Of a stretch of DNA of 64,000 nt, positions 12,977 to 42,678 are shown piece after piece. Position 1 is the first letter of the stretch; each line of letters starts with the position of its first letter. Position numbers and translations under genes: made by a program. The notes beneath the pieces are model-generated. The model had not been told where the DNA came from. It worked only from the letters and a program-made list of their open reading frames with translations, and searched no databases. Source of the stretch: Candidatus Omnitrophota bacterium (GTDB lineage Bacteria; Omnitrophota; Gorgyraeia; Duberdicusellales; 4484-171); assembly GCA_037146775.1 (NCBI GenBank), contig JBAWWL010000008.1:70160-134159 (forward strand), given 5' to 3'.

Positions 12977-13050
12977 CGCGGGGTGGAGCAGACAGGTAGC
13001 TCGCAAGGCTCATAACCTTGAGGTCAGTGGTTCAAATCCACTCCCCGCAA
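12977..13050 (+). tRNA. tRNA-Met (CAU), initiator type (fMet)
   Basis: Cloverleaf CGCGGGG...CTCATAACC...GGTTCAAATCC...CCCCGCAA. The C1/A72 mismatch and 5'-terminal CGCGGGG are hallmarks of bacterial initiator tRNA. CCA is not encoded. Confidence 0.9.
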
Positions 13051-13205
13051 TGTCTTAAATAGAGGGCGTAGATTGAAGAAATTCAACCTACGCCTTTTCT
13101 GTTTATGGACATATAGTATCGTTGGAGGCTGTGTGATATGGTTTATGCTGAGGTTTAAATTGTAAATTTTAGCCTGTAGGATATAATAAAAAAAAGGAGT
13201 AATAA

Positions 13206-13235
13206 ATGAAACCTCAAACAAAGAAAATCATAGCG
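13206..13235 (+). repeat. 5' module copy 1 (ATGAAACCTCAAACAAAGAAAATCATAGCG), encodes 16-aa mini-ORF MKPQTKKIIADEWFGE
   Basis: 30-nt motif present 9x between 13.2 and 22.4 kb. Confidence 0.9.
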
Positions 13236-13262
13236 GATGAGTGGTTTGGTGAATAAGGAGGG

Positions 13263-13706
13263 GTGATGGAAAATATTACAGCACCAAAAGGTGTAATATT
13301 AATAGTAAAAACTTATACTGTGTTAATTGTCTTATTGTTTGGGATATCGCTGCTTTTATTATTTGCAAGCACACTTCCAGTTCCCGTATCAGAAAGTGAT
13401 AGCCTTGAAGCTGGTGTCCGGGTTTCAAAGATGCAATCGTTGTCTTTGCGAGCTTCCGGTATTATTCTATTTTTAGCTATTAATTTTATCCTGTTGCGAA
13501 AAGCACTGCGAAATTTAAAAAAGTTGGCACTATATTACAATTTGTTACTTTTCATAGCATGTAGTATTCCTTTATTATTATTCATTATTGATGTTAAAGA
13601 CGCCCAAGTTATTGGTATTAAGATATTTTTTATTTTAATAATTCTATTATTTCTGTGCAGTAATTTGTATCTTTTCCGTTCCAAGGTTAAAAAGTGTTTT
13701 ATATAG
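13263..13706 (+). CDS. hypothetical polytopic membrane protein
   Basis: 147 aa, 4 predicted TM helices; RBS GGAGGGG upstream; lies between the two tRNA-derived repeats. Confidence 0.5.
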   Translation: MMENITAPKGVILIVKTYTVLIVLLFGISLLLLFASTLPVPVSESDSLEAGVRVSKMQSLSLRASGIILFLAINFILLRKALRNLKKLALYYNLLLFIACSIPLLLFIIDVKDAQVIGIKIFFILIILLFLCSNLYLFRSKVKKCFI

Positions 13707-13743
13707 AAATATTGTAAGCCGATTCTACTATCCATTTTTTTTC

Positions 13744-13805
13744 ATCATCTGGGCGGTAAGGACGTTGAAGCAAAATGATTTAGGTAAAGATATTTAAAAG
13801 GAAGT
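13744..13805 (+). repeat. 3' module copy a (..CATCTGGGCGGTAAGGACGTTGAAGCAAAATGATTTAGGTAAAGATATTTAAAAGGAAG)
   Basis: ~60-nt motif present 7x. It reads as the C-terminal peptide IIWAVRTLKQ.DLGKDI* when in frame. Confidence 0.9.
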
Positions 13806-13949
13806 ATAGAAATGAGGACCGGGTCTACTATTATAAATTGAGCATTTCTATTTACATTACTACTTGAAGTAATACAATCATCTAAAGGAGGTAAAGGCTA
13901 CTGAGGACAGGGTACTAGTCAACAAAGCTCTTTATTAGTTTTTTATCGT

Positions 13950-14140
13950 CTCATAACCTTGAGGTCAGTGGTTCCCCGCCAGCGAAGCTGGCGAGGTCTC
14001 GCCCTCTGCCGAAGGCAGAGAGGCGGAAAATCCACTCCCCGCAATGTCTTAAATAGAGGGCGTAGATTGAAGAAATTCAATCTACGCCTTCTTTGTTTAT
14101 AGGCATGTAATGCTTTCGGAGGCTGTGGGGAGACTCGATA
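13950..14140 (+). repeat. direct repeat of the tRNA-fMet 3' half (anticodon loop onward) plus ~90 nt of its downstream flank, interrupted by a 57-nt insertion
   Basis: 13009-13140 and 13950-14140 share CTCATAACCTTGAGGTCAGTGGTT...TCCACTCCCCGCAATGTCTTAAATAGAGGGCGTAGATTGAAGAAATTCAA. The second copy has a two-hairpin insert CCCCGCCAGCGAAGCTGGCG...GCCGAAGGCAGAG at the T-loop position. Confidence 0.85.
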
Positions 14141-14334
14141 ATGTTTATCCTACCAACGAACCTATATTAATTTGGACCTTATCATGTGTTAGCAGCATTA
14201 CTTTCTGCTAGCATTGTAAGCGATTCCAGCAATTACCGTGCATAGCCTTGTCGGCTAATCTCTTAAAATGTTATACTTAAATACTAGAGCATCATAAAAA
14301 TAAGGAAATATCTGTAGATGATAGGAAGAAAGCT

Positions 14335-15162
14335 ATGAGATCGTTCAAATTCTTATTGTTTTATCTTGTTTTTAATCTGCTATTTGTAGGATTTAGATGT
14401 TTTGCTTCCGATAGCAAGGTGCTATCTACAAAAGTTGTCAGTAATAGAGCCCAGAAGCGTGAACAAGTAAAGGGGCAATTTATGGCCGAGCGTTCTATAG
14501 ATAGAAGGCAAGAACTAGATGCCCGCGCAAAATGGAACAACGCAATTATTCCTGCCGCTGGTACAACATACGAAGTTCGTGCTTTAGTAAAAGGGAAAGA
14601 CCGAGACCAAGTATTTGAACAGACAATTTCCTCGGGGCACACTTCTTTGCAACGCGCAGAAGAGAAACGTGCCGAAGCCCTTGATAGACCTTATTATAAA
14701 GGTTCTCATGTTGCAATTTTTATGGAAGTTAATAATGAATTAAAGCAAGTGCTATATTGGGACCCCGCCATTAAACCTTTATATAGAATTGGTAGTTATG
14801 ATACGCTCTATGAGGTGGCTGATTTGGCCGCACGCTTACGTTTGGATGATTATAAAATGATAGCAGCTAAAGGATGGGATAGAGATCCGAATGTAGCTGG
14901 AATGTTAGCGCCAGAACTAAAAATATACAGTGTTGATGGCGATGGCATGCCCATGAGTGAAGCTGATATCGCCTTCGAAGTATTTCTTAAAACAGAAGGT
15001 ATTCATAGGCCAAAAGCGTTAAATATTTTTCATTATACAAACCAAGAAGCAGAAGATTTTGTTTCAAGAGAACAAAAATTTCTTCCACAAGGACAGAGTT
15101 TACGTATTAGAGAATCAATCTTTTTTAACCCTCTCCCGGAAAATTTCAGTTATCCTGATTGA
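14335..15162 (+). CDS. hypothetical secreted protein
   Basis: 275 aa, N-terminal signal peptide, no recognisable motif. Confidence 0.5.
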   Translation: MRSFKFLLFYLVFNLLFVGFRCFASDSKVLSTKVVSNRAQKREQVKGQFMAERSIDRRQELDARAKWNNAIIPAAGTTYEVRALVKGKDRDQVFEQTISSGHTSLQRAEEKRAEALDRPYYKGSHVAIFMEVNNELKQVLYWDPAIKPLYRIGSYDTLYEVADLAARLRLDDYKMIAAKGWDRDPNVAGMLAPELKIYSVDGDGMPMSEADIAFEVFLKTEGIHRPKALNIFHYTNQEAEDFVSREQKFLPQGQSLRIRESIFFNPLPENFSYPD

Positions 15163-15325
15163 AAGTTATATCTTGTCATTATGAACACAATATGACATTT
15201 GAGTGGGAATTAGTAGTTAACCTGCCTTAGTTTTTATCCCACCAGCCAATCTACATTAGTTTTAACCCCTCGCTAAATCTGTTGTAGTCATAAATTACCG
15301 TGGTATATTGAAAACAAACAGTAAA

Positions 15326-15526
15326 ATGACAGCAGCAAATATAATAGGTGGGATTTTATTTAGCGGAATTGGCTTCGTTGCCTTGATGTATGGGAAAAAG
15401 CAAGTCAATACAAAGGCGATGATAATCGGCGTTCTACTTATGGCCTACCCTTATTTTGTGTCAAACACCATTGCGTTATATCTAATAGGCGTTGTTTTAA
15501 CAGTAGCCTTATTCATCCCCCGCTAA
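15326..15526 (+). CDS. small two-TM membrane protein
   Basis: ~66 aa, two hydrophobic helices. Confidence 0.35.
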   Translation: MTAANIIGGILFSGIGFVALMYGKKQVNTKAMIIGVLLMAYPYFVSNTIALYLIGVVLTVALFIPR

Positions 15527-15712
15527 ATACCTCGCTTTTTTAACCTTGACCAATATTTACTATAGCAGTATCATTTTAGCTACTTGACCACAAAGGGGTG
15601 GTTAATGCATGAGGATAAAATGATATCCAGAAAACACAATCGGGACATTTTTATAGGGTAAGGCAATCATCTATCAGAGGATTGCCTTTTTGGTTTAAGA
15701 AAGGAGATATAT

Positions 15713-16462
15713 ATGAAATGCAGCGTTCATCTTGAAAGAGAAGCTGTAGGAGCTTGCGTAGAATGTGGTCTTGCTTTTTGTGAGGAGTGCAAAGTTACTA
15801 TAAGTAATAAAAATTATTGCAAAAAATGTGTTGAAAGGGTAATCAAAAGAACCAAACTTTCTGAAAGAAATCCTGCCATTGCTGCTTTATTGAGTTTTAT
15901 TATCGCTGGTGCAGGACAAATATATAATGGACAGATAGGAAAAGGTATTTTAATATTTCTAACGGCTTGGCTAGTAATACCTTGGATTTATGGCATTTTC
16001 GATGCCTACAACACAGCCAAAAGAATAAATAATGGAGAAATAGTTACTGAGGAACCATCGGGTTGTTTGCTTGCGCTTTTGTTTGTTATAACGATTCCGG
16101 TGGTTGTTGCTATGATTGCTTTACTTGCTGCTATAGCTATCCCAAATTTCTTGAGAGCTAGATTGGCAGCTAACGAAGCCGGAGCAGAAGCAAAAGTAAT
16201 GACTATATCTACAGCACTTGAGAGCTATGCCTCTGTGCATGAAGGGAATTATCCTTCAGATGAAAAGGACCTTACAAATGCCCAGCCACCCTACTTAGGT
16301 GAATCTTGCAGTAATAAATCAATTAAAGGATATAATTATTCTTTAGAATTAAATTCTGATGGATATACAGTTACTGCAGAACCTTCCAGTTGCGGAACTA
16401 CAGGAAGTAGAATTTTTAAAGTAGAGACGGGTGGGATTAAACGTGAACAACAATGTAAATGA
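15713..16462 (+). CDS. zinc-ribbon / TM2-domain / type IV pilin-like helix fusion protein
   Basis: N-terminal CxxC...CxxC...CxxC ribbon. TM2-like segment (AGAGQIYNGQIGKGILIFLTAWLVIPWIYGIFDA). Then ALLAAIAIPNFLRARLAANEAGAEAK, which resembles the conserved pilin/pseudopilin N-terminal helix. Confidence 0.5.
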   Translation: MKCSVHLEREAVGACVECGLAFCEECKVTISNKNYCKKCVERVIKRTKLSERNPAIAALLSFIIAGAGQIYNGQIGKGILIFLTAWLVIPWIYGIFDAYNTAKRINNGEIVTEEPSGCLLALLFVITIPVVVAMIALLAAIAIPNFLRARLAANEAGAEAKVMTISTALESYASVHEGNYPSDEKDLTNAQPPYLGESCSNKSIKGYNYSLELNSDGYTVTAEPSSCGTTGSRIFKVETGGIKREQQCK

Positions 16463-16731
16463 ATAAAAAACAATTAATAGTTACTTTATTAACACTATTT
16501 TTTGTTTTACCTGTATTCGCCGCCAATATACCTCAAGAGTTACAATTGCTTGGTTTTACTCAAGACAAGTTAGTTGATTACAGACGTGCTAAAGATAATA
16601 TTGAATATTTTACTTTCTCCGATTGGACTACGGAGAGGAAGGGAGATACAATTACCTTCATAGTCGAGAGAGGTCAGATAACAGGAAAGTTTAAAGATGA
16701 GAATAGAAAGGTTTTAGATAAGGATATTTAA
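16459..16731 (+). CDS. small secreted protein (paralog of 22090..22383)
   Basis: 90 aa, signal peptide; the mature part is ~90% identical to the 22090 ORF (IPQELQLLGFTQ.KLVDYRRAK.NIEYFTF.DWTTERKGDTITFIVERGQITGKFKD). Confidence 0.6.
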   Translation: MNKKQLIVTLLTLFFVLPVFAANIPQELQLLGFTQDKLVDYRRAKDNIEYFTFSDWTTERKGDTITFIVERGQITGKFKDENRKVLDKDI

Positions 16732-16744
16732 AAGGAGGAGATAA

Positions 16745-17305
16745 ATGAATAGTAAAATAATTACGTTGATGATAGTGCTATCAGTTTTATATTATAACAA
16801 TGCTGCAGCTAAAACTATAAACGCTTTAGACGTATTATCTTTTGAGGTAAATGATGCTACTCAGGTTACTGTAGGACCATATAAACAAGGCGACTTCCAG
16901 ATATATACAGCAGCCTTGGTCGATCCTGAAGATAGGCTTTTGGGGGAATTTCATATCCAGGATTTTTCCAAACAATATACAAATTGGAAAGAAGTCTTAG
17001 TGTCGCCAACATATGATTTGGATGGATACAAAAGTGCGATTACTACACTTTTTCCTAATACTTTAATTTCTACCTTAACTTGGGTTTCGGCTGAAAAAAA
17101 TAACATAAATGATAAGCAAGTTTATACGTATATTTTTGATTATACTAACTCTAAACTTTCGATAACTCATAGATTCAAATGCTACATATTAATACAAAAT
17201 AGTTATCTCATTAGATGTTATGCTGGAACACCGCAGGCAGAATTTGAAAAAAATTCTAAAATAATAGATAGCATTATAGAAAGTGTAAGATTTGTTCAGA
17301 ATTAG
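16745..17305 (+). CDS. hypothetical secreted protein
   Basis: 186 aa, signal peptide; RBS AAGGAGG 8 nt upstream. Confidence 0.5.
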   Translation: MNSKIITLMIVLSVLYYNNAAAKTINALDVLSFEVNDATQVTVGPYKQGDFQIYTAALVDPEDRLLGEFHIQDFSKQYTNWKEVLVSPTYDLDGYKSAITTLFPNTLISTLTWVSAEKNNINDKQVYTYIFDYTNSKLSITHRFKCYILIQNSYLIRCYAGTPQAEFEKNSKIIDSIIESVRFVQN

Positions 17306-17349
17306 CAAAATTCTTTAGAACAAAAGAACAGTTTAAATAAGGAGACTTA

Positions 17350-17583
17350 ATGAAACCTCAAACAAGGAAAATCATAGCGAGAGAAGTAAGGATTCTGTTG
17401 CTTTGTTATGTCTTAGGTCTTATAGCTGGTTATCTCGTGACGTGCAATAAGAATGCCCCTTGGTACTCTTCCTTTGTGGGAGCGTTCAGTGTTTGTATAA
17501 TTTATTACATCGCTATTTTAATTGTGCGTTTGTTATTCAAATGTATCATCTGGGCGGTAAGGACGTTGAAACAAAGGATTTAG
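17350..17583 (+). CDS. small membrane protein, intact member of the module-bounded family (MKPQTKKIIAR...IIWAVRTLKQRI)
   Basis: 77 aa, 2 TM. N-terminus is the 5' module and C-terminus is the 3' module, in one frame. Confidence 0.6.
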   Translation: MKPQTRKIIAREVRILLLCYVLGLIAGYLVTCNKNAPWYSSFVGAFSVCIIYYIAILIVRLLFKCIIWAVRTLKQRI

Positions 17584-17609
17584 GTAAAGATATTTAAAGA
17601 GGCGATATG
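17545..17609 (+). repeat. 3' module copy b
   Basis: CATCTGGGCGGTAAGGACGTTGAAACAAAGGATTTAGGTAAAGATATTTAAAGAGGCGATATG. It supplies the RBS and start context of the 17607 ORF. Confidence 0.9.
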
Positions 17610-17948
17610 AATGAGGTCGTTACAAAGAAGAAAAGACCAAACATGGTTTCGATGTTCGTTCTCTGTTATGGTTTATTGGGTGGCTATTATCTTTTTGAAC
17701 GTTTTTTGGGTTCAAGCGGAGTAAGAATGATAAAGCCATACGATGTAGCAGAAGTTAGTATTGTCTTAATTTTTGGTTTATTATTTTTTCTTTCTTCGAT
17801 TCTACTGTTTAGAATGAAGTACTCTGGATTTTGGGTTGTTATTATACCGCTATTTTTATTTGCTTACGGTTTACCCCCATTATCTTTATTGCTATTATTA
17901 CATATTGTTTATTTTAATCTACCCAAAGTAAAAGAACAGTTTAAATGA
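17607..17948 (+). CDS. small membrane protein (C-terminal LPKVKEQFK)
   Basis: 113 aa, 3 TM. Shares its C-terminal motif with the 17989 ORF. Confidence 0.5.
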   Translation: MNEVVTKKKRPNMVSMFVLCYGLLGGYYLFERFLGSSGVRMIKPYDVAEVSIVLIFGLLFFLSSILLFRMKYSGFWVVIIPLFLFAYGLPPLSLLLLLHIVYFNLPKVKEQFK

Positions 17949-17974
17949 AACTTCAAACAAAGAAAATCATAGCG
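17945..17974 (+). repeat. 5' module copy 3 (mini-ORF MKLQTKKIIARRRE)
   Basis: Its ATG overlaps the TGA of the upstream gene (TAAATGA); the internal AGGAGGG serves as RBS for the 17989 ORF. Confidence 0.9.
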
Positions 17975-17988
17975 AGAAGGAGGGAATA

Positions 17989-18417
17989 ATGGAGAAGAAA
18001 AGGTCGGTTGGGGTTACGATACTCTCACTGATTTATATCGTTATAGGCTTAGGCATATTAACAACTACCATAACCGAACCCAGAAATACAGAACCAAGCA
18101 TTTTCTATTCGCATTGGGGGAGGGAAATTTTTGAGCCAATGACACCCTTAGAGCATTTGCGTTTCCAGGCAATTTTAGCGTTTTGCTTATCCACACCTTT
18201 TCTTATTAGTGGATTTGGTACTTTGAAATTGAAAAAATGGGGAAGGATACTTATTGTAATACTAAATATGTTTTTTGTATTTTTATTACCCCCAACAATT
18301 ATAACAGTAGTTATCTATAAGCATCACGATTTTTTATTTCTCCTTATTATGGAAATTTTTGCACTCATTTTTTCGGTTTATCTCGCCCGTCCCAAAGTAA
18401 AAGAGCAGTTTAAGTAA
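17989..18417 (+). CDS. small membrane protein (C-terminal RPKVKEQFK)
   Basis: 142 aa, 4 TM. Confidence 0.5.
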   Translation: MEKKRSVGVTILSLIYIVIGLGILTTTITEPRNTEPSIFYSHWGREIFEPMTPLEHLRFQAILAFCLSTPFLISGFGTLKLKKWGRILIVILNMFFVFLLPPTIITVVIYKHHDFLFLLIMEIFALIFSVYLARPKVKEQFK

Positions 18418-18424
18418 TCCGCTT

Positions 18425-18490
18425 TATCCTCTGGGCGGTAAGGACGTTGAAGCAAAAGGATTTAAGGAAAGATATTTAAGGAGATATATG
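18425..18490 (+). repeat. 3' module copy c
   Basis: CCTCTGGGCGGTAAGGACGTTGAAGCAAAAGGATTTAAGGAAAGATATTTAAGGAGATATATG; ends in the ATG of the 18488 ORF. Confidence 0.9.
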
Positions 18491-18760
18491 AATAAACAAA
18501 AGACGAAATTTTTCTGGATAGTTATGGTGTTGGTTCTTGTCGGCATTGCTGTATTATTTTTGTTAATTTATGCTCAATGCTATGTACTTAAGCCTCAACA
18601 CGGAATGGGTCGGATGAGTCCAGGTAAAGATGCAGCATATTACGATTCAGATAAGAAAAAATGGGTAAGCGAGGCGGAATGGCTTAGGAAGTACACAGAA
18701 TTGCCAATAGGTTATCTTTCGAAAGAGGAGTGGGATAAGAAAAAACGGAATAATCAATGA
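18488..18760 (+). CDS. small single-TM protein
   Basis: 90 aa, N-terminal TM, charged C-terminal domain. Confidence 0.45.
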   Translation: MNKQKTKFFWIVMVLVLVGIAVLFLLIYAQCYVLKPQHGMGRMSPGKDAAYYDSDKKKWVSEAEWLRKYTELPIGYLSKEEWDKKKRNNQ

Positions 18761-19374
18761 AACCTCGAACAAAGAAAATCATAGCGATAGCAATAATAGG
18801 AATTATCATTTTTGGGGTTATATTTTTTGGAGGACATTTATTTAAGGGGAATGTATCTGGCAATGCAAGAATAAATAGGTCTTTCAAAGATTTAACTCTT
18901 GGAATGAGCCTCGAAGAATTTAAGTCAAAATTAATATATGAAGAAGGAAGCATGACAAAAGGTACATCATACAGAAGCTATGCGATATATAATACTTTTT
19001 ATAACTCTTTGTATCATTACTCCGGTCAAGGCAAACGAATGAAGGAAATTAAAAATGTTTATAGCGTCTGGTGTTATTTCCTTGAAAACAAACTATTTAA
19101 GATCCACATAAGTTACCTTAATAGCTATCATCCGACTTGGGATAATGTTATCCATAACGCAAAAGGAAAGTATGGTGAGGGTATAATAGAAGCAGGAAAT
19201 GTTATTCGTTGGGATGATGGAAAAACTACTCTAACGATAGCCAAATTATACGGGGAGCAAGGCTTAAATATAAGTGATAGTTATAGTGGAGACCATTACA
19301 CAGTAACTTATAAAGATAACGAGCTGAGCTCATTAATTGACAAGAAAGAAAAGAAGGAAACCCCTGAAATCTAA
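18757..19374 (+). CDS. hypothetical N-terminally anchored protein (N-terminus derived from the 5' module)
   Basis: 205 aa; starts MKPRTKKIIAIAIIGIIIF, which is 5' module copy 4. Confidence 0.5.
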   Translation: MKPRTKKIIAIAIIGIIIFGVIFFGGHLFKGNVSGNARINRSFKDLTLGMSLEEFKSKLIYEEGSMTKGTSYRSYAIYNTFYNSLYHYSGQGKRMKEIKNVYSVWCYFLENKLFKIHISYLNSYHPTWDNVIHNAKGKYGEGIIEAGNVIRWDDGKTTLTIAKLYGEQGLNISDSYSGDHYTVTYKDNELSSLIDKKEKKETPEI

Positions 19375-19394
19375 ACGAGTAAAGGTAGAGAAAG

Positions 19395-19673
19395 ATGTTT
19401 AAAAGGGAATATATGAAACTAAAGAAAATCATAGCGAGAGAAGGGTTGGCATTGTTGGTGGCGATTTTTATTGCTTGGCATATGGCACAAACTAACGGTC
19501 TGAAAAGTTTTATGATGGATATTAGAATTGTAACCCCACGCCCAAATCAAGCAGATGCTGTTTTGCAAGAAGCAACTACAGCTGGTTTTTGGTTTATTTT
19601 GATTGTGGGTTATGGCGTTGTCCGCTTCATCCCCCTAAAGGGACGGCGTTGGACGCCAGCATCTGGGCGGTAA
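19395..19673 (+). CDS. small membrane protein, module family member with frame-shifted 3' end (possible pseudogene)
   Basis: Contains the 5' module deletion variant (MKLKKIIAREG). The 3' module follows out of frame (ends PASGR* instead of IWAVRTLKQ). Confidence 0.35.
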   Translation: MFKREYMKLKKIIAREGLALLVAIFIAWHMAQTNGLKSFMMDIRIVTPRPNQADAVLQEATTAGFWFILIVGYGVVRFIPLKGRRWTPASGR

Positions 19674-19724
19674 GGACGTTAAAGCAGAAGGATCCAAGGA
19701 AAGATATTTAAAGGAGGCGATATG
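19659..19724 (+). repeat. 3' module copy d
   Basis: CATCTGGGCGGTAAGGACGTTAAAGCAGAAGGATCCAAGGAAAGATATTTAAAGGAGGCGATATG; feeds the 19722 ORF. Confidence 0.9.
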
Positions 19725-20039
19725 AAACTATCCAGTAAAGTAATCTGGTTTATTTTTGGTGTAATACTTTATCCGCTTTGTTTTATGCTTATTTTTATAC
19801 TTACGATTCCCCTTTCAGCTCTACCAAAAAATAATGCGGTGCAAATTTTTTCTATATCGGTAATATTTTTAATACCTATTTTTATTATCGTACTGACTTG
19901 GAAACGTAATATTAGTTTTGCTGTAGGATTAATTTTATCCTTTTGCTTAGTTTTCATTTCGTTGAATAGAAGTTACAGAAGGGTGGTGAAGAATGAGAAA
20001 GCAAAAGTACTAGAAAATTCATTACCCGCCCCAAAGTAA
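19722..20039 (+). CDS. small membrane protein
   Basis: 105 aa, 3 TM. The 3' end runs into the PKVKEQFK-type motif out of frame. Confidence 0.45.
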   Translation: MKLSSKVIWFIFGVILYPLCFMLIFILTIPLSALPKNNAVQIFSISVIFLIPIFIIVLTWKRNISFAVGLILSFCLVFISLNRSYRRVVKNEKAKVLENSLPAPK

Positions 20040-20052
20040 AGGAGCAGTTTAA

Positions 20053-20082
20053 ATGAAACTTCAAACAAAGAAAATCATAGCG
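20053..20082 (+). repeat. 5' module copy 6 (mini-ORF MKLQTKKIIARGDENVFI)
   Basis: Preceded by GGAGCAGTTTAA; overlaps the start of the 20090 ORF. Confidence 0.9.
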
Positions 20083-20089
20083 AGAGGGG

Positions 20090-20488
20090 ATGAGAATGTA
20101 TTTATTTAAAAGGATAATGTGGTTTCTCGGAGGGATTATTACGGGGTTCATATCATCTTTTTATATTCTTGTACCTATATTTTGTTCACTCCAAATACCC
20201 GTCTATTTACAATGTAGTATTATCATTATCATTGTGACAATTGTGCTTTTGCTATTTTCTAAGAAAAATAGAATATTCTTTTATAGTTTCCTTATTTCAT
20301 TTATTATTGGGACGATTCCATGTATTGTGTTTTATTATGTGTTTGGAGGTGGCAGTTTTCCTAACCCCGATGGCGGTTCTGGCAGGATGAGTCGGGAAGA
20401 ACAGTTAGAATTAGAAAGAAATCAACAAGAATACAAACCAGACCCAAGCAGAATTAAAATAATACAACTGAAATCAAAAAATGATTAA
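20090..20488 (+). CDS. small membrane protein
   Basis: 132 aa, 3-4 TM, Gly-rich C-terminal tail. Confidence 0.45.
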   Translation: MRMYLFKRIMWFLGGIITGFISSFYILVPIFCSLQIPVYLQCSIIIIIVTIVLLLFSKKNRIFFYSFLISFIIGTIPCIVFYYVFGGGSFPNPDGGSGRMSREEQLELERNQQEYKPDPSRIKIIQLKSKND

Positions 20489-20519
20489 GGAAATGGTAAT
20501 GTTTTTTTTCTTTAATGGT

Positions 20520-20549
20520 ATGAAATCCCAAACAAAGAAAATCATAGCG
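20520..20549 (+). repeat. 5' module copy 7 (mini-ORF MKSQTKKIIAREAKLAYIGKKEETYELVFPSA)
   Basis: The leader ORF overlaps the RBS and start of the DUF805 gene. Confidence 0.85.
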
Positions 20550-20592
20550 AGAGAGGCAAAGCTAGCATATATCGGAAAAAAGGAGGAGACCT

Positions 20593-20937
20593 ATGAATTG
20601 GTATTTCCAAGTGCTTAAGAAGTACGCAGTATTTAGCGGTCGTGCTAGACGGAAAGAGTACTGGATGTTCTTAATTTTTAACTTGAGTGTCTGCTTTGTA
20701 TTAGGTTTCATAGAAGGGTTTTCCGGTATTACGCCAAAGGGAAACCACAGTGTTTTGGGCAGGATTTATGTATTGGCTGTCTTGATTCCGATCATTGCCG
20801 TTGCTATCCGCAGAATGCACGACACTGACCATCGCGGATGGTGGATACTCGTTCCGATTGTCAGCTGGGTTTTCCTCTGTTTAGATAGTACCCCCGGAAA
20901 CAATAGATTCGGACCTAACCCCAAGGCTATCTCTTAA
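20593..20937 (+). CDS. DUF805-family inner membrane protein
   Basis: MNWYFQVLKKYAVFSGRARRKEYW motif and 3 TM typical of DUF805 (YhaH-like). Confidence 0.65.
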   Translation: MNWYFQVLKKYAVFSGRARRKEYWMFLIFNLSVCFVLGFIEGFSGITPKGNHSVLGRIYVLAVLIPIIAVAIRRMHDTDHRGWWILVPIVSWVFLCLDSTPGNNRFGPNPKAIS

Positions 20938-20945
20938 CTTGTTTT

Positions 20946-21012
20946 CATCATTTGGGCGGTAAGGACGATAAGATAAAAGGATTTAGGTAAAGATATTTAG
21001 GGGGGATATACG
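20946..21012 (+). repeat. 3' module copy e, followed by a degenerate 5' module
   Basis: CATCATTTGGGCGGTAAGGACGATAAGATAAAAGGATTTAGGTAAAGATATTTAGGGGGGATATACGAAACCTCCAATACAG. Confidence 0.85.
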
Positions 21013-21073
21013 AAACCTCCAATACAGATTCCGTATATTAATTGTTAGATTTAATAAATAAGATAAAAAAATA

Positions 21074-21436
21074 ATGGCGAAATGTTTTAACTGTGGCAAA
21101 GAAATTGGTTTATCTTGGATTTGGAAAAAGCGGATGGTCCACGCGCCTCTTACTCTCCGACGATATACTCATAAGATAGTAGGCTTACCATTTTTTTATT
21201 GCCCCGATTGCGGAACAGAAATTCAACCTTCCGCAATCACAATGTGTGTTTATAGCGTTATAGTAATGGGTGGAACGTTGGGAACCTCGTGGCTGATTGT
21301 TCTGTTTGGCGATAAAAAACAGGTTAACATTATTAGCATAACAGTGATTTTTATATTTTTTGCTGTACTTGGTAACTTATGGTGGAAATTTTTCGGCAAA
21401 TTAAAAGAACCATATCAATTTCCTTGGGAAAAGTAG
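21074..21436 (+). CDS. zinc-ribbon membrane protein
   Basis: CFNCGKEI...YCPDCGTEI ribbon then 2 TM. Confidence 0.5.
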   Translation: MAKCFNCGKEIGLSWIWKKRMVHAPLTLRRYTHKIVGLPFFYCPDCGTEIQPSAITMCVYSVIVMGGTLGTSWLIVLFGDKKQVNIISITVIFIFFAVLGNLWWKFFGKLKEPYQFPWEK

Positions 21437-21494
21437 TAATTAAATAAAAATCTAACAAGGCAATCCAGCGGACTAAAATAAGGGAGCAGTTTAA

Positions 21495-21524
21495 ATGAAA
21501 CTTCAAACAAAGAAAATCATAGCG
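21495..21524 (+). repeat. 5' module copy 8 (mini-ORF MKLQTKKIIARRRG)
   Basis: Preceded by GGGAGCAGTTTAA; AGGAGGGG RBS for the 21536 ORF. Confidence 0.9.
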
Positions 21525-21535
21525 AGAAGGAGGGG

Positions 21536-21805
21536 ATGATGGAGAAGAAATGCTCGGTTGGGATAAGAATATTTAGCATAATAGGATTACTTTATGTGTC
21601 CTTTTTTCATTTAATACCTTTATTTTACTATGCTCGGATGAATAATTTTATTCATTTAATTTTCTTAGCTTTCTCCATAATTCTAATAATTAGCTTAATA
21701 TTTATGTTAAAAATGAAAAACTGGGCAAGAATAGTATTTGTTTCCCTTATGATTATCCAATGTTTATCTGTGTTTCCAACTATAATCGAGGATTTTAGAA
21801 AATAA
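21536..21805 (+). CDS. small membrane protein
   Basis: 89 aa, 3 TM; its 3' end is tagged by the GGGGTCAGACC... repeat. Confidence 0.45.
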   Translation: MMEKKCSVGIRIFSIIGLLYVSFFHLIPLFYYARMNNFIHLIFLAFSIILIISLIFMLKMKNWARIVFVSLMIIQCLSVFPTIIEDFRK

Positions 21806-21811
21806 GATAGA

Positions 21812-21836
21812 GGGGTCAGACCTTCAGATGTCAGAT
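21812..21836 (+). repeat. GGGGTCAGACCTTCAGATGTCAGAT repeat copy 1
   Basis: Identical 25-26-mer at 21812, 23456 and 26039, each at a gene 3' end. Confidence 0.9.
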
Positions 21837-22089
21837 AGATCGCAAAAATGAATTATTTATCAACCAAAGCCCACCTCCGGGGTGGGATTTGGTTGAGGTT
21901 TATAGATTAAACAAAATTAAAAATTATCCATGCCCGACGATCCACTTGATGAATTTCTAGGATATGATTTTGCAGTGGGCGCGGATAACATAAAATGTTC
22001 CCATTGTGGTTACAACATATCGCGTAGCTTATTCTTCGAAGACGATGACGAAGAAATCAAATGTCCTAAGTGCGGCGGAAAAATAGAAA

Positions 22090-22383
22090 ATGATGGATAA
22101 AAGACACGTAATATCTTTTTTGCTGGTATTAATTTATTTTGTTTCCCTGTCTTATAGTAAAGAGCTGCCAAAAAAGAATATTCCCCAAGAGCTGCAATTG
22201 CTCGGTTTTACTCAAGAAAAGTTGGTTGATTACAGACGTGCTAAAGGAAATATCGAATACTTCACTTTCTTTGATTGGACTACAGAGAGGAAGGGAGATA
22301 CCATTACTTTCATAGTCGAGAGAGGTCAGATAACAGGAAAGTTTAAGGATAAAGATAGGAAAGATTCAGGTAGGGATATTTAA
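22090..22383 (+). CDS. small secreted protein (paralog of 16459..16731)
   Basis: 97 aa. Different signal peptide from its paralog but a near-identical mature region. Confidence 0.6.
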   Translation: MMDKRHVISFLLVLIYFVSLSYSKELPKKNIPQELQLLGFTQEKLVDYRRAKGNIEYFTFFDWTTERKGDTITFIVERGQITGKFKDKDRKDSGRDI

Positions 22384-22394
22384 AAGGAGGATAT

Positions 22395-22625
22395 ATGAAA
22401 CTCGAAACAAAGAAAATCATAGCAAGCGAATGGTTGATTTTGTTATGTTTAATAATTACTTTTTATTCATCTTTGGCATTGTACAGGGAAATAACCTTAC
22501 GGTATGACCAAATTTTAACTCCTATTTATTTCTGGAGGCATTTTGGTTTAATGTACACAGCTTATTTTATCATTCGCTTTACAATCTGGGCGGTGAGGAC
22601 GCTAAGGCAGAAGGATGTAAAATGA
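22395..22625 (+). CDS. small membrane protein, second intact member of the module-bounded family (MKLETKKIIA...FTIWAVRTLRQKDVK)
   Basis: 76 aa. 5' module copy 9 forms the N-terminus and 3' module copy f the C-terminus. Confidence 0.6.
   Translation: MKLETKKIIASEWLILLCLIITFYSSLALYREITLRYDQILTPIYFWRHFGLMYTAYFIIRFTIWAVRTLRQKDVK
22583..22624 (+). repeat. 3' module copy f (coding, in frame)
   Basis: CAATCTGGGCGGTGAGGACGCTAAGGCAGAAGGATG. Confidence 0.85.
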
Positions 22626-22918
22626 GATTGGGCAATAAAATTGGATTGTTGATTATAATTATAATTCCAGTATGGATATTTATAAGAGCCCAGTTAATTT
22701 ATACAGAAGGTCCAAAAATAGTTAAGAGGATAGAAGAATATAAGGTTAGATATAAAACATACCCAGAAACATTAGGGCAGATGAATATAAGGAGTATACT
22801 TTCTCCGATATATATGTATTCTAAAAACGATGACAAATTTAGCTTAATGTATTCTATATTTATATTTTCAAGATGGTATTATGATTCCAATGATAAAAAA
22901 TGGAAGACCATGGATTAA
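22622..22918 (+). CDS. small N-terminally anchored protein
   Basis: 98 aa, one TM. Confidence 0.4.
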   Translation: MRLGNKIGLLIIIIIPVWIFIRAQLIYTEGPKIVKRIEEYKVRYKTYPETLGQMNIRSILSPIYMYSKNDDKFSLMYSIFIFSRWYYDSNDKKWKTMD

Positions 22919-22984
22919 ATGTTAACTAAAAAATTATTGGATATTTATAAAACTGCGAAAGAATATTTTACTCGTCCGTTTCAT

Positions 22985-23015
22985 CGCCTGGGCGGTGAGG
23001 GCGAAAGATAAAATG
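22985..23015 (+). repeat. 3' module copy g (truncated)
   Basis: CGCCTGGGCGGTGAGGGCGAAAGATAAAATG; runs into the start of the 22995 ORF. Confidence 0.75.
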
Positions 23016-23432
23016 AAAAAACTAATCGGTTTATTGATATTAGTTGTATTGATTGATGGGTATACTGCAAGAATTGATGCTGCGAGCAATGGAAGTGAAG
23101 CATCTAATTATGAGTACAGCGATAATGATATTCCGGCTGTTTGTTTTTTCCCGGTAGAAAAGGCAAGATGGAGTGGCTACGGCGTTACCAACAATGATTG
23201 GGGAAAGCTGACTGATTATCAAAAAACTATGTTTATCTCAGAAGGGATAGAAGAAATTAAACGAATCGAAACGGGTAAAGTTACGGTAAATATTCAGGAA
23301 GAAGGGGCAGCTTTGCTTATTGCCACGAACGAAAGGGTTTTCCGTCTTCAGGAAGAATACCCCGGCCTTGATGTAGGAATGATAAAGTTTCTACGCGATA
23401 TGTTGCAAGATATGGGAAAAATAAAAGAATAA
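22995..23432 (+). CDS. hypothetical secreted protein
   Basis: 145 aa with signal peptide; 3' end tagged by the GTCAGA repeat. Confidence 0.45.
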   Translation: MRAKDKMKKLIGLLILVVLIDGYTARIDAASNGSEASNYEYSDNDIPAVCFFPVEKARWSGYGVTNNDWGKLTDYQKTMFISEGIEEIKRIETGKVTVNIQEEGAALLIATNERVFRLQEEYPGLDVGMIKFLRDMLQDMGKIKE

Positions 23433-23455
23433 ATAAGTCATATAGTGGGGTCAGA

Positions 23456-23480
23456 CCTTCAGATGTCAGATGAATAAAAA
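23456..23480 (+). repeat. GGGGTCAGACCTTCAGATGTCAGAT repeat copy 2
   Basis: Exact copy. Confidence 0.9.
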
Positions 23481-23625
23481 AATACATGATCCCAGCCTAC
23501 GAAGATACTGCGAAATTCTTTTCGATCATTTCACGATGTTTAGCGGGGTTAATGCCAGTGAGACTGTCTTTTTTTTAGACAAAGCGAAAAACATATAGTC
23601 AGATTACCATTAAGGAGGCAAAAGA

Positions 23626-24285
23626 ATGAAGTACTTTGAAGTTCCTCGGCCGGCAGGAAACGGACTCTGTTCGGACAAGAACTGTCCTTGTTCGGAAACG
23701 GTAATCTTGCGAGGCAGCGGTTATTTGTATATTAGCCAGGAGCTCGTGGATTTTCGCCAGGATTGTCTTAGTTATGAGCAACTTCAGGCTAAGTTAGAGG
23801 CGATGGCTAAATCCGACCCGTTAAACAATCATGGCTCTTCCGGATTCGTGCGTTTCTTACCCCCCGGCACTACCAGTCCGATTATGATGTGTAAGCAAGG
23901 CGCTACGCTTAGGGGGTTAGACCTCGGGGTGGCTGCCGCTGATGCAAAATATTGGTGGAAAACCGGTCTGGTGCCGCTTCGAGTGACTCCGATTGCTACT
24001 GGCGGTATGGCGAATCCTGAAAATATACAGTCTACTATTAGCCAACTAAACGAATCAGCTTCTCGCGAAAGATTTCAGGGTAAAAAGGTTTGCGTAGTAT
24101 GCAATAGCGATATTTCTACAGGAGTTATTCAATGTGCTAACTGCGGCAGTTCACGCTTTAATTACATCTCGGATAAAATAGAAACTATACCAACAGATTC
24201 CGAACGACAATCGAAACTGCCAGAGGAAAAACAAAAAAAGTGGTGGCAGTTCTGGAAAACATCCAAAATCTTATCCGCAAAATAA
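23626..24285 (+). CDS. hypothetical protein with Cys-rich N- and C-terminal segments
   Basis: 219 aa; CxxC pairs (CSDKNCPC...CVVCNSD...CANCGS); RBS AAGGAGG upstream. Confidence 0.45.
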   Translation: MKYFEVPRPAGNGLCSDKNCPCSETVILRGSGYLYISQELVDFRQDCLSYEQLQAKLEAMAKSDPLNNHGSSGFVRFLPPGTTSPIMMCKQGATLRGLDLGVAAADAKYWWKTGLVPLRVTPIATGGMANPENIQSTISQLNESASRERFQGKKVCVVCNSDISTGVIQCANCGSSRFNYISDKIETIPTDSERQSKLPEEKQKKWWQFWKTSKILSAK

Positions 24286-41309: not shown

Positions 41310-42305
41310 TTAAAACTTCAACGTCTCAACCGCTTTCTTTAAATGCTCCGGACTTAGGTGAGCGTATATCTGCGTAGTAGCAAAGTCAGCATGGCCCAAT
41401 ATTTTACCTACTGTATATAAATCCACCCCACTCATGACTAACCATGAGGCGCAGGAATGACGAAGTACATGGAAGAGCCTGCCTTTACCCAAGTTTATCT
41501 TCGCGGCCACCAATAAAGTCTTAAATGCCCTCTTGGGCTCGTCTGTGTATTTTTTACCGTTATAAACGAACACAAACGGCGTAGAATGGGGTATCTTGTG
41601 TAGGGTAGAGGAAACCATCGGATGTATGGGAATTGTGCGAAAAATACGGCTTTTTGCCTTACTACCACGTATTGTAATAGTATTGTTCGATAAATCTATG
41701 TCTTTCCATTCAAGATTAAGGATTTCACCTATTCTCATGCCGGTATAGAGTGCAGTTATGATTATAGGATATAAATGCGATTCTTTGGAAACTTCAAGCA
41801 GCTTGGATATTTCGTCTTTGGATAAATAGCGCGGAGGTTCTTTCGGTACTTTGAGTTTTTTAATCTGGTCTATCGGATTATCAAAGATGTAGTTATTTCG
41901 TTTAGCGTAATTTAAGAAAGTGCGGATATTGCCGATATAGTTATTTATGCTTTTAGGTTTTAGTTTTTTCAGCGATTGAAGATATAGTTGTATCGTATGT
42001 GGCTTAACATCCCTTAACGTGTTTGCTCCGCTAAACTTAATAAATTTCTCTAACTGTGGTATATCTGTCTTGAGTGATTTTTCTGCTTTCTTGAGTTTCG
42101 AGTATTCCTTATATTCTTCAACAATTTCTGAAAGTTTTTTGCTTGTAGGTAATTTGGCGCGGCCTTCCTCAAGCTCTATTTCTTTTTGCCGTTTTAGATG
42201 AAGCGCTAGCCTGCGGTCCTTTACCTTGAGGGAATACTGGATCCTTTTTCCGTTAAGATAGAACGAAAGCCAGTAGGTGTTGTTTCTTAGGAAGATTGAG
42301 GCCAT
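41310..42305 (-). CDS. tyrosine-type site-specific integrase (phage integrase family)
   Basis: C-terminal R...HVLRHS...TTQIYAHL catalytic motif set. Confidence 0.9.
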   Translation of the reverse strand: MASIFLRNNTYWLSFYLNGKRIQYSLKVKDRRLALHLKRQKEIELEEGRAKLPTSKKLSEIVEEYKEYSKLKKAEKSLKTDIPQLEKFIKFSGANTLRDVKPHTIQLYLQSLKKLKPKSINNYIGNIRTFLNYAKRNNYIFDNPIDQIKKLKVPKEPPRYLSKDEISKLLEVSKESHLYPIIITALYTGMRIGEILNLEWKDIDLSNNTITIRGSKAKSRIFRTIPIHPMVSSTLHKIPHSTPFVFVYNGKKYTDEPKRAFKTLLVAAKINLGKGRLFHVLRHSCASWLVMSGVDLYTVGKILGHADFATTQIYAHLSPEHLKKAVETLKF

Positions 42306-42306
42306 C

Positions 42307-42669
42307 TTAAGGCACTATGCCATATTTCATTGGTTTGTCGGAATTGATAGATGAATATTCTTCAACAATCCCATCTTTAGAAAACATTATGACCAGCATT
42401 TGATTTTTCATTTCCATTTCGCTGTGGATAATATTGACTACCGGTATAAAGTTCCAGGCGGTATTTCTTACCTTACTGGCAAAGTAAGAATAAACTAATC
42501 TTCCGTCTTTATCGAAGTAGGTTGTGTCGGGTTGGCCGAAAACCTTTACCACTTCTTCTTTGGTAGTTTTGCCTTTTTGAAGCTTATCAACATTAGTTTG
42601 TTTAATTTCTGTTCCAACAGTGGCGCAGCCGGAGAAAAGAACCAAGATACAAAATATAATTATTCTCAT
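42307..42669 (-). CDS. BamE/SmpA-OmlA-like lipoprotein
   Basis: Lipobox LFSGC; LQKGKTTKEEVVKVFGQPD motif. Confidence 0.55.
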   Translation of the reverse strand: MRIIIFCILVLFSGCATVGTEIKQTNVDKLQKGKTTKEEVVKVFGQPDTTYFDKDGRLVYSYFASKVRNTAWNFIPVVNIIHSEMEMKNQMLVIMFSKDGIVEEYSSINSDKPMKYGIVP

Positions 42670-42678
42670 AGTCTAATT

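Follow-up and report, generated by a model that had tools for sequence, protein, structure and literature searches.

Short open reading frames (ORFs) that precede several small genes in a cassette array of a Candidatus Omnitrophota bacterium are probably stumps of truncated genes that kept an inherited gene junction, were not selected as regulators and act at best as a passive ribosome relay. A preliminary description of the window, the 64,000-nucleotide stretch of DNA analysed here, had read these mini-ORFs as dedicated leaders, chained by stop/start overlaps, likely to couple or regulate the translation of successive cassettes. We find instead that they are the first 11–15 codons of a family of 65–160-amino-acid membrane proteins, here called fam1, and that no evidence points to their construction or retention as a regulator.

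Repeat modules and mini-ORFs in the array

The repeat described at 17945, 20053 and 21495 is real: CAGTTTAAATGAAAC occurs in three exact + strand copies (17937, 20045 and 21487; 0 mismatches), against a chance expectation of 0.42 at up to 2 mismatches and with at least three matches in 0 of 100 shuffles. These copies are only part of a larger set, comprising nine + strand 5′ modules (ATGs at 13206, 17350, 17945, 18757, 19413, 20053, 20520, 21495 and 22395), all of which encode KKIIA, and seven copies of a 3′ module. Long ORFs of 77, 205, 86 and 76 amino acids begin with the 5′ module in four of the nine copies. The five mini-ORFs retain the N-terminal motif up to R11 and have the lengths first proposed: 14, 18 and 14 codons at 17945, 20053 and 21495, 16 at 13206 and 32 at 20520.

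It is very improbable that the exact repeats gave chimeric joins and that the stub–gene junctions are absent from the cell. Exact 41–48-nt repeats do break the k = 31 Logan assembly, in which contig L004 is interrupted within stubs 17945 and 20053 (at 17955 and 20070), as expected because the exact repeats lie there. Against an artefact, a contig of assembly GCA_964613555.1, which terminates near window position 47849, so that the window appears to derive from a different assembly, is 100% identical to window positions 7350–32625 and so agrees over 25 kb; two Logan contigs are likewise 100% identical to the window sequence, and orthologous stub-plus-ORF units are present in independent JGI metagenomes (L079 and L082).

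Two membrane-protein families and the stub units

The unannotated family fam1 consists of small two-helix membrane proteins, modelled by AlphaFold as a helical hairpin (pLDDT 81). One search returned 82 matches, and at E ≤ 1e-3 the family has 1,517 cluster representatives, for the most part from Omnitrophota; it is without a match in Pfam, NCBIfam, PHROGs and PADLOC, and a viral-contig scan with its profile found no relative. Its alignment shows a conserved N-terminus (M..K.KKIIAREGL) and C-terminus (RFIIWAVRTLKQK) around a hypervariable middle. We assigned proteins to fam1 by K[KR]IIARE[GW]L about 5–25 residues from the start together with two helices and RFIIWAVRTLKQK in the same frame. Helices and in-frame C-terminal motif are present in two genes of the window: P0002 (17350..17597, +; 77 amino acids), for which the 5′ module is the true N-terminus and upstream of which lies a partial fam2 C-terminal remnant (17316–17338), and P0001 (22395..22625, +; 76 amino acids), identified from the ORF list and family search. 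A further fam1 gene, P0003 (19413..19711, +), is disrupted close to the 3′ end by a GC-rich insert of about 30 nt relative to its intact relative P0004. By contrast with these genes, the five mini-ORFs end after 14–32 codons, and any C-terminal motif behind them is out of frame and start-less; they are fragments of fam1, not family members. The preliminary description had named synonymous-site conservation as the mark of an RNA-level role. Across 26 genomes picked by peptide pattern, the fam1 amino acids are fixed and synonymous codons vary (Ile: ATC 10, ATA 11, ATT 5; Ala: GCG 12, GCA 10, GCC 2, GCT 2), which places the constraint on the protein.

A second unannotated membrane-protein family, fam2 (N-terminus MEKKRSVGV; C-terminus FTRPKVKEQFK), is without a model match in Pfam, NCBIfam and PADLOC, and in PHROGs one protein gave one marginal holin match (E = 0.002). 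On the PHROGs results and the viral-contig scan we rejected a phage origin. The fam2 ending, ..AAG GAG CAG TTT AAA TGA, provides a Shine–Dalgarno (SD) site in its Lys-Glu codons (AAGGAG), an 8-nt spacer and an ATGA stop/start overlap. Because these conserved C-terminal codons double as the ribosome-binding site of the next gene, the tail outlives the gene. The same KEQFK-stop/ATGA junction also stands ahead of full-length fam1 genes in other genomes (L008, L014, L021, L024, L052 and L088), and the leaders are therefore truncated fam1 genes.

At stub 1, the upstream partner is an intact fam2 gene of 113 amino acids (17607..17948, +; ORF list and family alignment), the last nine codons of which, PKVKEQFK and stop, form the junction module (17922–17948, +) and the TGA of which overlaps the stub ATG as ATGA at 17945. 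Stub 1 itself, MKLQTKKIIARRRE (17945..17989, +), is the fam1 5′ module cut after codon 11, MKLQTKKIIAR followed by RRE; it holds the SD of the next gene, AAGGAGGG (17977–17984), and its TAA overlaps the ATG of that gene. This gene, fam2 member P0196 (locus tag WCI77_07710; 17989..18417, +; 142 amino acids), sits at the expected place of the fam1 body, and directly after its stop comes an out-of-frame, start-less fam1 3′ remnant ending in IRFILWAVRTLKQKDLRKDI (18418..18479, +). Stub 2, MKLQTKKIIARGDENVFI (20053..20109, +; 18 codons, MKLQTKKIIAR then GDENVFI), follows a start-less fam2 remnant, PKVKEQFK (20030..20056, +), in which AAGGAG precedes the stub ATG by 8 nt and which the real upstream ORF (19722–20039) crosses in another frame, stopping at 20037–20039. 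Stub 2 overlaps the start of an unrelated membrane-protein ORF of 130–132 amino acids (20090..20488, +; start at 20090 or 20096; ORF list), the SD of which, GAGAGGGGA, is derived from the fam1 A-R-E-G codons. Stub 3, MKLQTKKIIARRRG (21495..21539, +; 14 codons, MKLQTKKIIAR then RRG), likewise follows a start-less fam2 remnant, KIREQFK (21475..21498, +), with GGGAG 8 nt before the ATG, and its TGA overlaps the ATGATG start of P0200, a C-terminally short fam2 paralogue of 88–89 amino acids (21536..21805, +; ORF list and family search).

Stub 4, MKPQTKKIIADEWFGE (13206..13256, +; 16 codons), is a fam1 5′ module fragment with its own SD, followed by a fam2 gene of 146–147 amino acids (P0197/P0198; 13263..13706, +) and an out-of-frame fam1 3′ remnant ending in YYPFFFIIWAVRTLKQNDLGKDI (13736..13797, +). 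Stub 5 (20520..20618, +) runs for 32 codons from ATG 20520, in a frame already open from ATG 20481, and overlaps the start of a DUF805 gene (20593..20937, +; PF05656, E = 5e-29), behind which lies a decayed fam1 3′ remnant with an internal stop (20939–20999, +). The order of stub, foreign ORF and out-of-frame fam1 3′ remnant is thus found at 13206–13797, 17945–18479 and 20520–20999, and independently in L079, L085 and L049. Elsewhere in the array, a 205-amino-acid protein (18757..19374, +; ORF list) carries the 5′ module in frame as its N-terminus, and its ATG overlaps the stop of 18488–18760 (ATGA). Across the array cassettes, Pfam gave only DUF805, a weak TM2 match and zinc-ribbon matches, and PADLOC and NCBIfam searches gave nothing for most cassettes.

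Descent from a truncated gene explains the stumps better than a purpose-built leader. Several fam1 genes of the array have lost their body after codon 11–15; its place is now taken by an unrelated ORF with its own SD, and the old fam1 3′ end persists out of frame behind the foreign ORF in three of the five units. The residue is the inherited fam2–fam1 junction and an open frame of 14–32 codons running into the ribosome-binding site of the next gene, presumably under no selection for peptide or length.

Translation signals and spacing at the stumps

The stop/start overlaps invoked for coupling exist (ATGA at 17945, TAATG at 17989 and TGA over ATGATG at 21536), as does an SD inside a leader that overlaps the next gene, seen in stub 1. 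The chain holds at 17945 only: at 20053 and 21495 the upstream pieces are start-less remnants, and the real upstream ORFs stop 14 nt and 59 nt before the overlap and so do not reach it. Coupled-pair geometry is found where ORF 17607–17948 runs into stub 17945 and where stubs 17945 and 21495 run into the next gene. The SD duplexes of stubs 13206, 20053 and 21495 reach −8.4, −8.0 and −7.7 kcal/mol (5th percentile at random positions, −7.0 kcal/mol), and stub 1, with no upstream SD (−1.1 kcal/mol), has the ATGA overlap instead. The ATG is intact in all five window stubs, four of which have a usable initiation signal (SD or ATGA overlap); both points count against the relic interpretation. Because start signals survive, most of the stumps are probably translated, with ribosomes expected to terminate on or near the next start; on these signals passive coupling is possible as a consequence of the stub layout, and passive termination–reinitiation is the most that we would expect.

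Maintained upstream ORFs that pass ribosomes between cassettes by termination–reinitiation, coupling or tuning a promoter-poor polycistronic array, would draw support from the ATGA and TAATG overlaps and from the SD signals at stubs 13206, 20053 and 21495. They would also fit an array in which the stretch from about 14.1 to 21.87 kb has no + strand terminator-like site, promoter-like sites reach no higher a frequency than shuffled sequence gives, and three unrelated upstream ORFs (in the 17945, L079 and L082 contexts) end exactly in the module TGA; a differently built mini-ORF before a fam2 gene in L088 points the same way. We nonetheless consider such maintenance unlikely. A complete chain exists in one place. 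The SDs of the downstream genes are strong in four of five cases (−11.6 to −12.7 kcal/mol; the fifth, at 20096, −8.2) and lie in unstructured RNA, making coupling unnecessary at those four genes. Two stubs elsewhere (L065 and L059/L081) have no in-frame ATG, GTG or TTG. In six independent events, the stub frame stops nearer the next start than the other out-of-frame reading in three, farther in one or two and equally near in one or two, so that the spacing is no tighter than an alternative frame gives; TAAATGA by itself closes two of the three frames, and tight overlaps therefore come free. The stop-to-next-start distances of all window stubs, −10 to +26 nt, do resemble those of a maintained relay.

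What had been called a conserved upstream-ORF architecture is conserved across genomes at the junction, and the peptide and its length vary between orthologues, a further point against maintenance. Three residues differ between stub 13206 and its L079 orthologue, MKPHTKKIIAREGFGE, and the nucleotide changes within the stub read as nonsynonymous; stub 20053 has 18 codons and its L082 orthologue 13, owing to a 1-nt indel. Tails differ also among the window copies (RRE, GDENVFI, RRG, DEWFGE and others). Change between orthologues amounts to 7/51 in the stub versus about 6% in the enclosed ORF, with most changes in codons 11–13; we dropped the idea that the stub evolves faster, as the changes cluster in these codons and two orthologous pairs only make rate arguments weak. 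A scan of genome contigs with K[KR]IIARE[GW]L cannot find stubs cut at R11, and an unbiased stub count therefore comes only from an exact 18-mer scan of metagenomes, itself blind to stubs shorter than codon 11. Its family-type matches comprise 8 distinct stubs versus 13 full-length genes, and a share of about one third is high for neutral debris. Fam1 mini-ORFs ahead of fam2 genes recur in separate lineages (the window, L079 and L088, the last with a differently built collapse product, MTIWALKTLREG), and this recurrence of collapsed genes also sits uneasily with a relic origin.

Regulation by the peptide or the RNA is highly improbable. A leader peptide or attenuator (an arginine sensor built on the AGA-AGG-AGG run, for example) or a module-borne RNA element would accord with three successive Arg codons in two stubs and with nucleotide-level conservation of the module within the window. 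The Arg codons are, however, absent from the three other stubs and from orthologues; no terminator-like site or alternative hairpin was found at the stubs, where folds are weaker than those of shuffles (z = +2.1, +0.15 and +1.4), and an Rfam search matched only tRNA-Met. The RNA-structure role considered in the preliminary description finds no footing either, as seven module regions fold no more stably than shuffles. We rejected the arginine attenuator because the downstream SD, read in frame, yields its Arg codons. A programmed frameshift that joins the downstream protein to an N-terminal anchor from fam1 can be set aside with still more confidence. The downstream frame is open back into the stub at 17945 and 21495, as a fusion would need, but the module has no slippery heptamer (X XXY YYZ), the frame relation is not constant between copies, and stops inside the stub close the downstream frame at 20053, 13206 and 20520, three of the five copies, for which reason we rejected it.

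Cassette exchange and comparison with known systems

We tentatively entertain, as an addition compatible with descent of the stumps from truncated genes, that the fam1 5′, fam1 3′ and fam2 3′ coding ends serve as portable homology arms of 30–60 nt, at which homologous recombination or gene conversion exchanges whole cassettes both within the array and between genomes; the stubs would then be footprints of swaps, each supplying a ready translation start region, and a mechanism would be added. Nucleotide similarity within the array is limited to modules of 30–70 nt, except for one 219-nt repeat, and paralogue ends are 74–91% identical whereas the interiors of full-length paralogues are at the level of shuffled sequence. 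Stub cores are identical over 41–48 nt with diverged flanks (0/48 versus 12/49 mismatches, Fisher p = 2e-4), stub 3 sharing a 48-nt identical run with stub 1; three identical cores with differing flanks suggest gene conversion. Gene conversion or recombination among short modules could account for this identity, and the same process may shuffle the cassettes. The segment homologous to L079 opens with the stub ATG (13206), stops midway through the 3′ module at about 13775 and has unrelated flanks; homology to L082 begins at 20050 and continues at 94% identity, and three window cassettes have homologues in L082, where their order is different. Within the window, codon use across the nine modules is almost uniform; between genomes it varies. 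Against this, neither recombination intermediates nor population variants were seen, the cross-genome unit comparisons number two, breakpoints at gene boundaries are also expected from selection after random rearrangement, and purifying selection on the motifs together with codon bias can partly mimic nucleotide conservation. Nor is a dedicated recombinase nearby: the genes called between 7.3 and 32.6 kb include none, and the sole Phage_integrase match (41310–42305) lies beside a CI-like repressor in a prophage-like block 18 kb from the array.

Translational coupling through overlapping stops and starts (ATGA, TAATG; termination–reinitiation) is familiar from operon junctions such as those of the trp operon. 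The array resembles coupled operons in its four- and one-base overlaps, in the SD inside the upstream coding sequence (the fam2 Lys-Glu AAGGAG) and in its tightly packed genes on one strand. It differs in that its middle link is a gene stump of 14–18 codons with an intact upstream partner in one of three copies, and in that the downstream gene would seem not to need the stump, judging from the strong SD and unstructured RNA.

A second likeness is to PeSLs, regulatory mobile cassettes made of a promoter and a stem-loop, which in the hyperplastic regions of T4-type phages lie on either side of small ORFs (PMC2839356, PMC4122927). As outlined in those reports, PeSLs share with the array a short repeat that bounds small, mostly unknown ORFs and carries expression signals, and a motif at replacement boundaries between relatives, as where L079 and L082 homology starts at the module ATG. 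Unlike the non-coding phage PeSLs outlined there, the modules here are coding ends of two families, carry translation signals and lie in a bacterial chromosome; they are also without a stem-loop, with promoter-like sites at shuffle level and no viral-contig match. With integron arrays and rAID-1, a class of recombinase-associated immunity-gene arrays (bioRxiv 10.1101/471110), the array shares one-directional, small, mostly promoter-less unrelated genes between short repeats; unlike integrons, it is without an adjacent integrase and its repeats are direct and coding. We rejected an integron, finding no attC-like or recurrent inverted repeats at the junctions and no adjacent integrase. Domain searches detected no toxin or immunity domains in the array proteins. 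In polymorphic toxin loci (CDI, Rhs), displaced variable ends, known as orphan modules, keep a short conserved piece that enables recombination. Short conserved coding homology beside variable bodies and truncated, start-less or stump fragments in tandem are common to both; unlike in orphan modules, conservation here covers the first 11 codons, which have their own ATG, and a separate 3′ end, and the proteins are tiny membrane hairpins.

Stop/start overlaps and gene stumps are ordinary, and in its original form the finding is a modest one; more interesting than the mini-ORFs is the cassette array with its module boundaries. Both fam1 and fam2 are widespread small-membrane-protein families with sharply conserved ends and no known database model, and the array is a patchwork whose only common DNA is end-modules of 30–70 nt and which bears signs of units passing between genomes as well as of gene conversion. 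More speculatively, and with considerable doubt, Omnitrophota may carry recombinase-free, integron-like arrays in which the fam1 and fam2 ends are both homology arms for capturing and exchanging cassettes and portable translation-start adaptors, bringing an SD, a start and an overlapping stop, and the mini-ORFs are the working interface and not debris; any ORF placed behind fam1 codon 11 would then be expressed at once. Many hypervariable loci have been reported in complete Omnitrophota genomes (bioRxiv 10.64898/2026.06.07.730766). If the modules drive exchange, gene content in this uncultured, host-dependent phylum would have a simple way to vary through homology.

Mini-ORFs and the fam1 gene family

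Translation confirms that the five mini-ORFs of the preliminary description exist exactly as it gave them, at 13206, 17945, 20053, 20520 and 21495 (16, 14, 18, 32 and 14 codons; hereafter stubs). The 15-mer CAGTTTAAATGAAAC recurs on the + strand at 17937, 20045 and 21487, and no shuffled window contained three matches. At 17945, the ATGA contains the TGA that closes ORF 17607-17948, which is intact, the last A of the stub TAA is the first base of the ATG of 17989-18417, and AAGGAGGG lies within the stub (17977-17984, + strand). The window is 100% identical over 25 kb to a contig of GCA_964613555.1, and also to two Logan contigs, and the same proteins recur on an Omnitrophota contig at NCBI whose locus tags begin WCI77; if the window comes from that other assembly, as it appears to, two assemblies agree on the array.

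Only three to five module copies had been described; the repeat is real, and the full set comprises nine + strand 5′ modules (13.2-22.4 kb) and seven 3′ modules (..TCTGGGCGGTAAGGACGTTGAAGCAAAAGGA..). They form the two ends of a single 76-77-aa ORF at 17350-17583 and 22395-22625 and of one gene interrupted by a short insert at 19413-19711, and a 205-aa protein (18757-19374) has the 5′ module in frame as its N terminus. A profile of these ORFs recovered 82 relatives in a word-indexed search and 1,517 cluster representatives (E <= 1e-3) in an exhaustive search; genome hits came mostly from Candidatus Omnitrophota MAGs. The family (fam1) matched none of the models of Pfam, NCBIfam, PHROGs and PADLOC. 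Its proteins (62-160 aa) begin M..K.KKIIAREGLIL and end YPxYLLIRFIIWAVRTLKQK around an unalignable middle, which in some members includes an extra soluble stretch; AlphaFold predicts a helical hairpin (pLDDT 81). We ran the comparison of protein- and nucleotide-level constraint that the preliminary description proposed, using 26 family genes selected by peptide pattern, and the result favours protein. The residues K-K/R-I-I-A-R-E never change, whereas the choice among synonymous codons is free (Ile: ATC 10, ATA 11, ATT 5; Ala: GCG 12, GCA 10, GCC 2, GCT 2), indicating that the 5′ module is kept because it encodes a protein N terminus.

Longer proteins (89-504 aa) that are unrelated and have no fam1 C terminus also begin with the N-terminal motif (..KKIIAREGLI..), at 18757-19374 and on contigs L026, L029, L032, L040, L061 and L075 from other genomes or metagenomes; the motif may act as a portable anchor to the membrane or as a sorting signal. 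Outside the window, proteins P0083, P0084, P0085 and P0087 carry two to four fam1 units head to tail in a single ORF. In fam1 copy 19413, a GC-rich hairpin of about 30 nt (GGCGT-TGG-ACGCC core; 19631-19660) lies between ..VVRFI and IWAVRTLK and causes a frameshift; the window, GCA_964613555.1 and Logan contig L004 all carry this insert, and the intact relative P0004 does not.

In the stubs, fam1 sequence ends at codon 11 (17945, 20053 and 21495), 13 (20520) or 15 (13206), beyond which an unrelated ORF begins that has an SD of its own, and the fam1 3′ end persists out of frame and start-less at 13736-13797, 18418-18479 and 20939-20999. Directly 3′ of this last remnant is a probable decayed tenth 5′ module (21003-21035, GATATACGAAACCTCCAATACAGATTCCG). 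From their sequence, the stubs are evidently fam1 genes whose body has been replaced or deleted. A metagenome scan with an exact 18-mer returned 55 matches, among which we classified 13 full-length fam1 genes, 8 distinct stubs, 3 genes cut at contig ends and 3 cases of the module heading another protein; the stub pattern is not restricted to this genome. Contigs L079 and L082 carry orthologues of the 13206 and 20053 units (92.8% and 94% identity), and in L085 a lipoprotein ORF sits between stub and remnant. At about 3930-4000 in L088, a decayed fam2 tail (..KIKE, stop, F, stop) precedes a 12-codon ORF, ATGACC+ATCTGGGCACTAAAGACATTGAGGGAGGGATAA, that joins MT in frame to IWALKTLREG and a stop immediately ahead of a fam2 gene; unlike the window stubs, this collapse product reads as a fam1 gene reduced to both ends.

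The fam2-fam1 junction and the leader proposal

The ORFs 13266-13706, 17607-17948, 17989-18417 and 21539-21805 are members of a second unannotated family, fam2, with N terminus MEKKRSVGV, mid motif ILKLKNWARI and C terminus FTRPKVKEQFK, whose terminal nucleotides (..AAG GAG CAG TTT AAA TGA) supply an SD, an 8-nt spacer and the ATGA overlap. Because a fam2 tail directly precedes full-length fam1 genes in other genomes, as part of a complete fam2 gene in L021 and as a start-less remnant of 16-31 codons in L008, L014, L024, L052 and L088, and a partial tail (17316-17338) lies upstream of fam1 17350, the stub junction is an inherited fam2-fam1 junction. Its role as the next gene's ribosome-binding site is probably what lets the tail outlast its own gene. 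On the 7-kb contig L090 (GCA_964462435.1, CAYWWN010000018.1), a fam2 gene is found beside Phage_integrase and RepA_C genes, which shows that fam2 is able to move with mobile elements.

The junction would operate much as ordinary translational coupling does. Several observations speak for functional leaders: SD duplexes at 13206, 20053 and 21495 reach -8.4, -8.0 and -7.7 kcal/mol (random positions: -7.0 at the 5th percentile), stub 17945 lacks an SD yet overlaps a translated ORF, every stub stop lies -10 to +26 nt from the next start, and no terminator-like site was found on the + strand at about 14.1-21.87 kb. However, that the stubs are functional leaders with a maintained role is unlikely. 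The overlaps of the proposed coupling chain are real, but the chain is complete at 17945 only. Orthologous stub peptides differ (MKPQTKKIIADEWFGE versus MKPHTKKIIAREGFGE), a 1-nt indel changes stub length from 18 to 13 codons between orthologues, and in L065 and L059/L081 neither ATG nor GTG nor TTG stands in frame, although module and downstream ORF are kept. Downstream SDs are strong in four of five cases (-11.6 to -12.7), stub RNA folds less than shuffles (z = +2.1, +0.15, +1.4), and in just 3 of 6 independent events is the stop of the stub frame nearer the start than that of the alternative out-of-frame reading, with TAAATGA alone closing two of three frames. We favour stubs as relics, probably translated, that may relay ribosomes passively.

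Possible cassette exchange and the array setting

Nearly uniform codons across the nine module copies, combined with full-length fam1 paralogues whose ends are 74-91% identical and whose interiors show only shuffled-sequence likeness, point to recombination or gene conversion limited to module ends. Three stub cores are identical over 41-48 nt, against 12 mismatches in 49 positions of homologous flanks (Fisher p = 2e-4), and nucleotide similarity in the array is confined to 30-70-nt modules except for one 219-nt repeat. The stretch shared with L079 extends from the stub ATG into the middle of the 3′ module and has unrelated flanks; homology to L082 begins 3 nt upstream of the ATG, and three window cassettes have homologues there in a different order. 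These patterns are suggestive of cassette shuffling by homologous exchange at conserved ends. The 219-nt repeat (87% identical) belongs to paralogous secreted-protein genes at 16459-16731 and 22090-22383 (90 and 97 aa) and terminates exactly at the next gene's ATG; a homologue is present in L082, and the ends of the two window genes (..KDI, stop) resemble the window-specific fam1 tail DLGKDI.

The array is similar to PeSL-flanked hyperplastic regions of T4-type phages and to integron or rAID-1 arrays, but does not show what defines them: we found no stem-loop or promoter unit, no attC-like repeats, no integrase adjoining the array and, in a scan of viral contigs with the family profile, no viral relatives. 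Low G+C at 14000-24000 (0.34-0.38, versus 0.40-0.44 on either side) would fit a genomic island.

The 3′ half of tRNA-Met (12977-13050) and about 85 nt downstream with a terminator hairpin (13009-13133) recur at 13950-14127, where a GC-rich double palindrome of 54 nt (13975-14028), found once in the window, interrupts the copy in its T-loop. Stub 13206, a fam2 gene and a fam1 3′ remnant lie in the roughly 0.8 kb between the repeats, together with a promoter-like site, and 12977-14127 looks like an att-type duplication flanking one cassette unit. A 249-aa protein (15713-16462) gave weak matches only, to a zinc-ribbon/B-box-like motif at its N terminus, to a TM2 domain and to a segment resembling type IV pilin/pseudopilin. 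At 41310-43317 (- strand), 18 kb from the array, lies a separate block of prophage-like or integrative type, in which a tyrosine recombinase (Phage_integrase) adjoins small ORFs and a repressor with HTH and Peptidase_S24; the end of the GCA_964613555.1 contig, at about 47849, falls within this block.

In total, the preliminary observation is confirmed and its interpretation partly supported. The stubs themselves are ordinary, being stumps of genes at coupled junctions that were inherited; of moderate interest is their setting, a module-bounded cassette array with two unannotated protein families.
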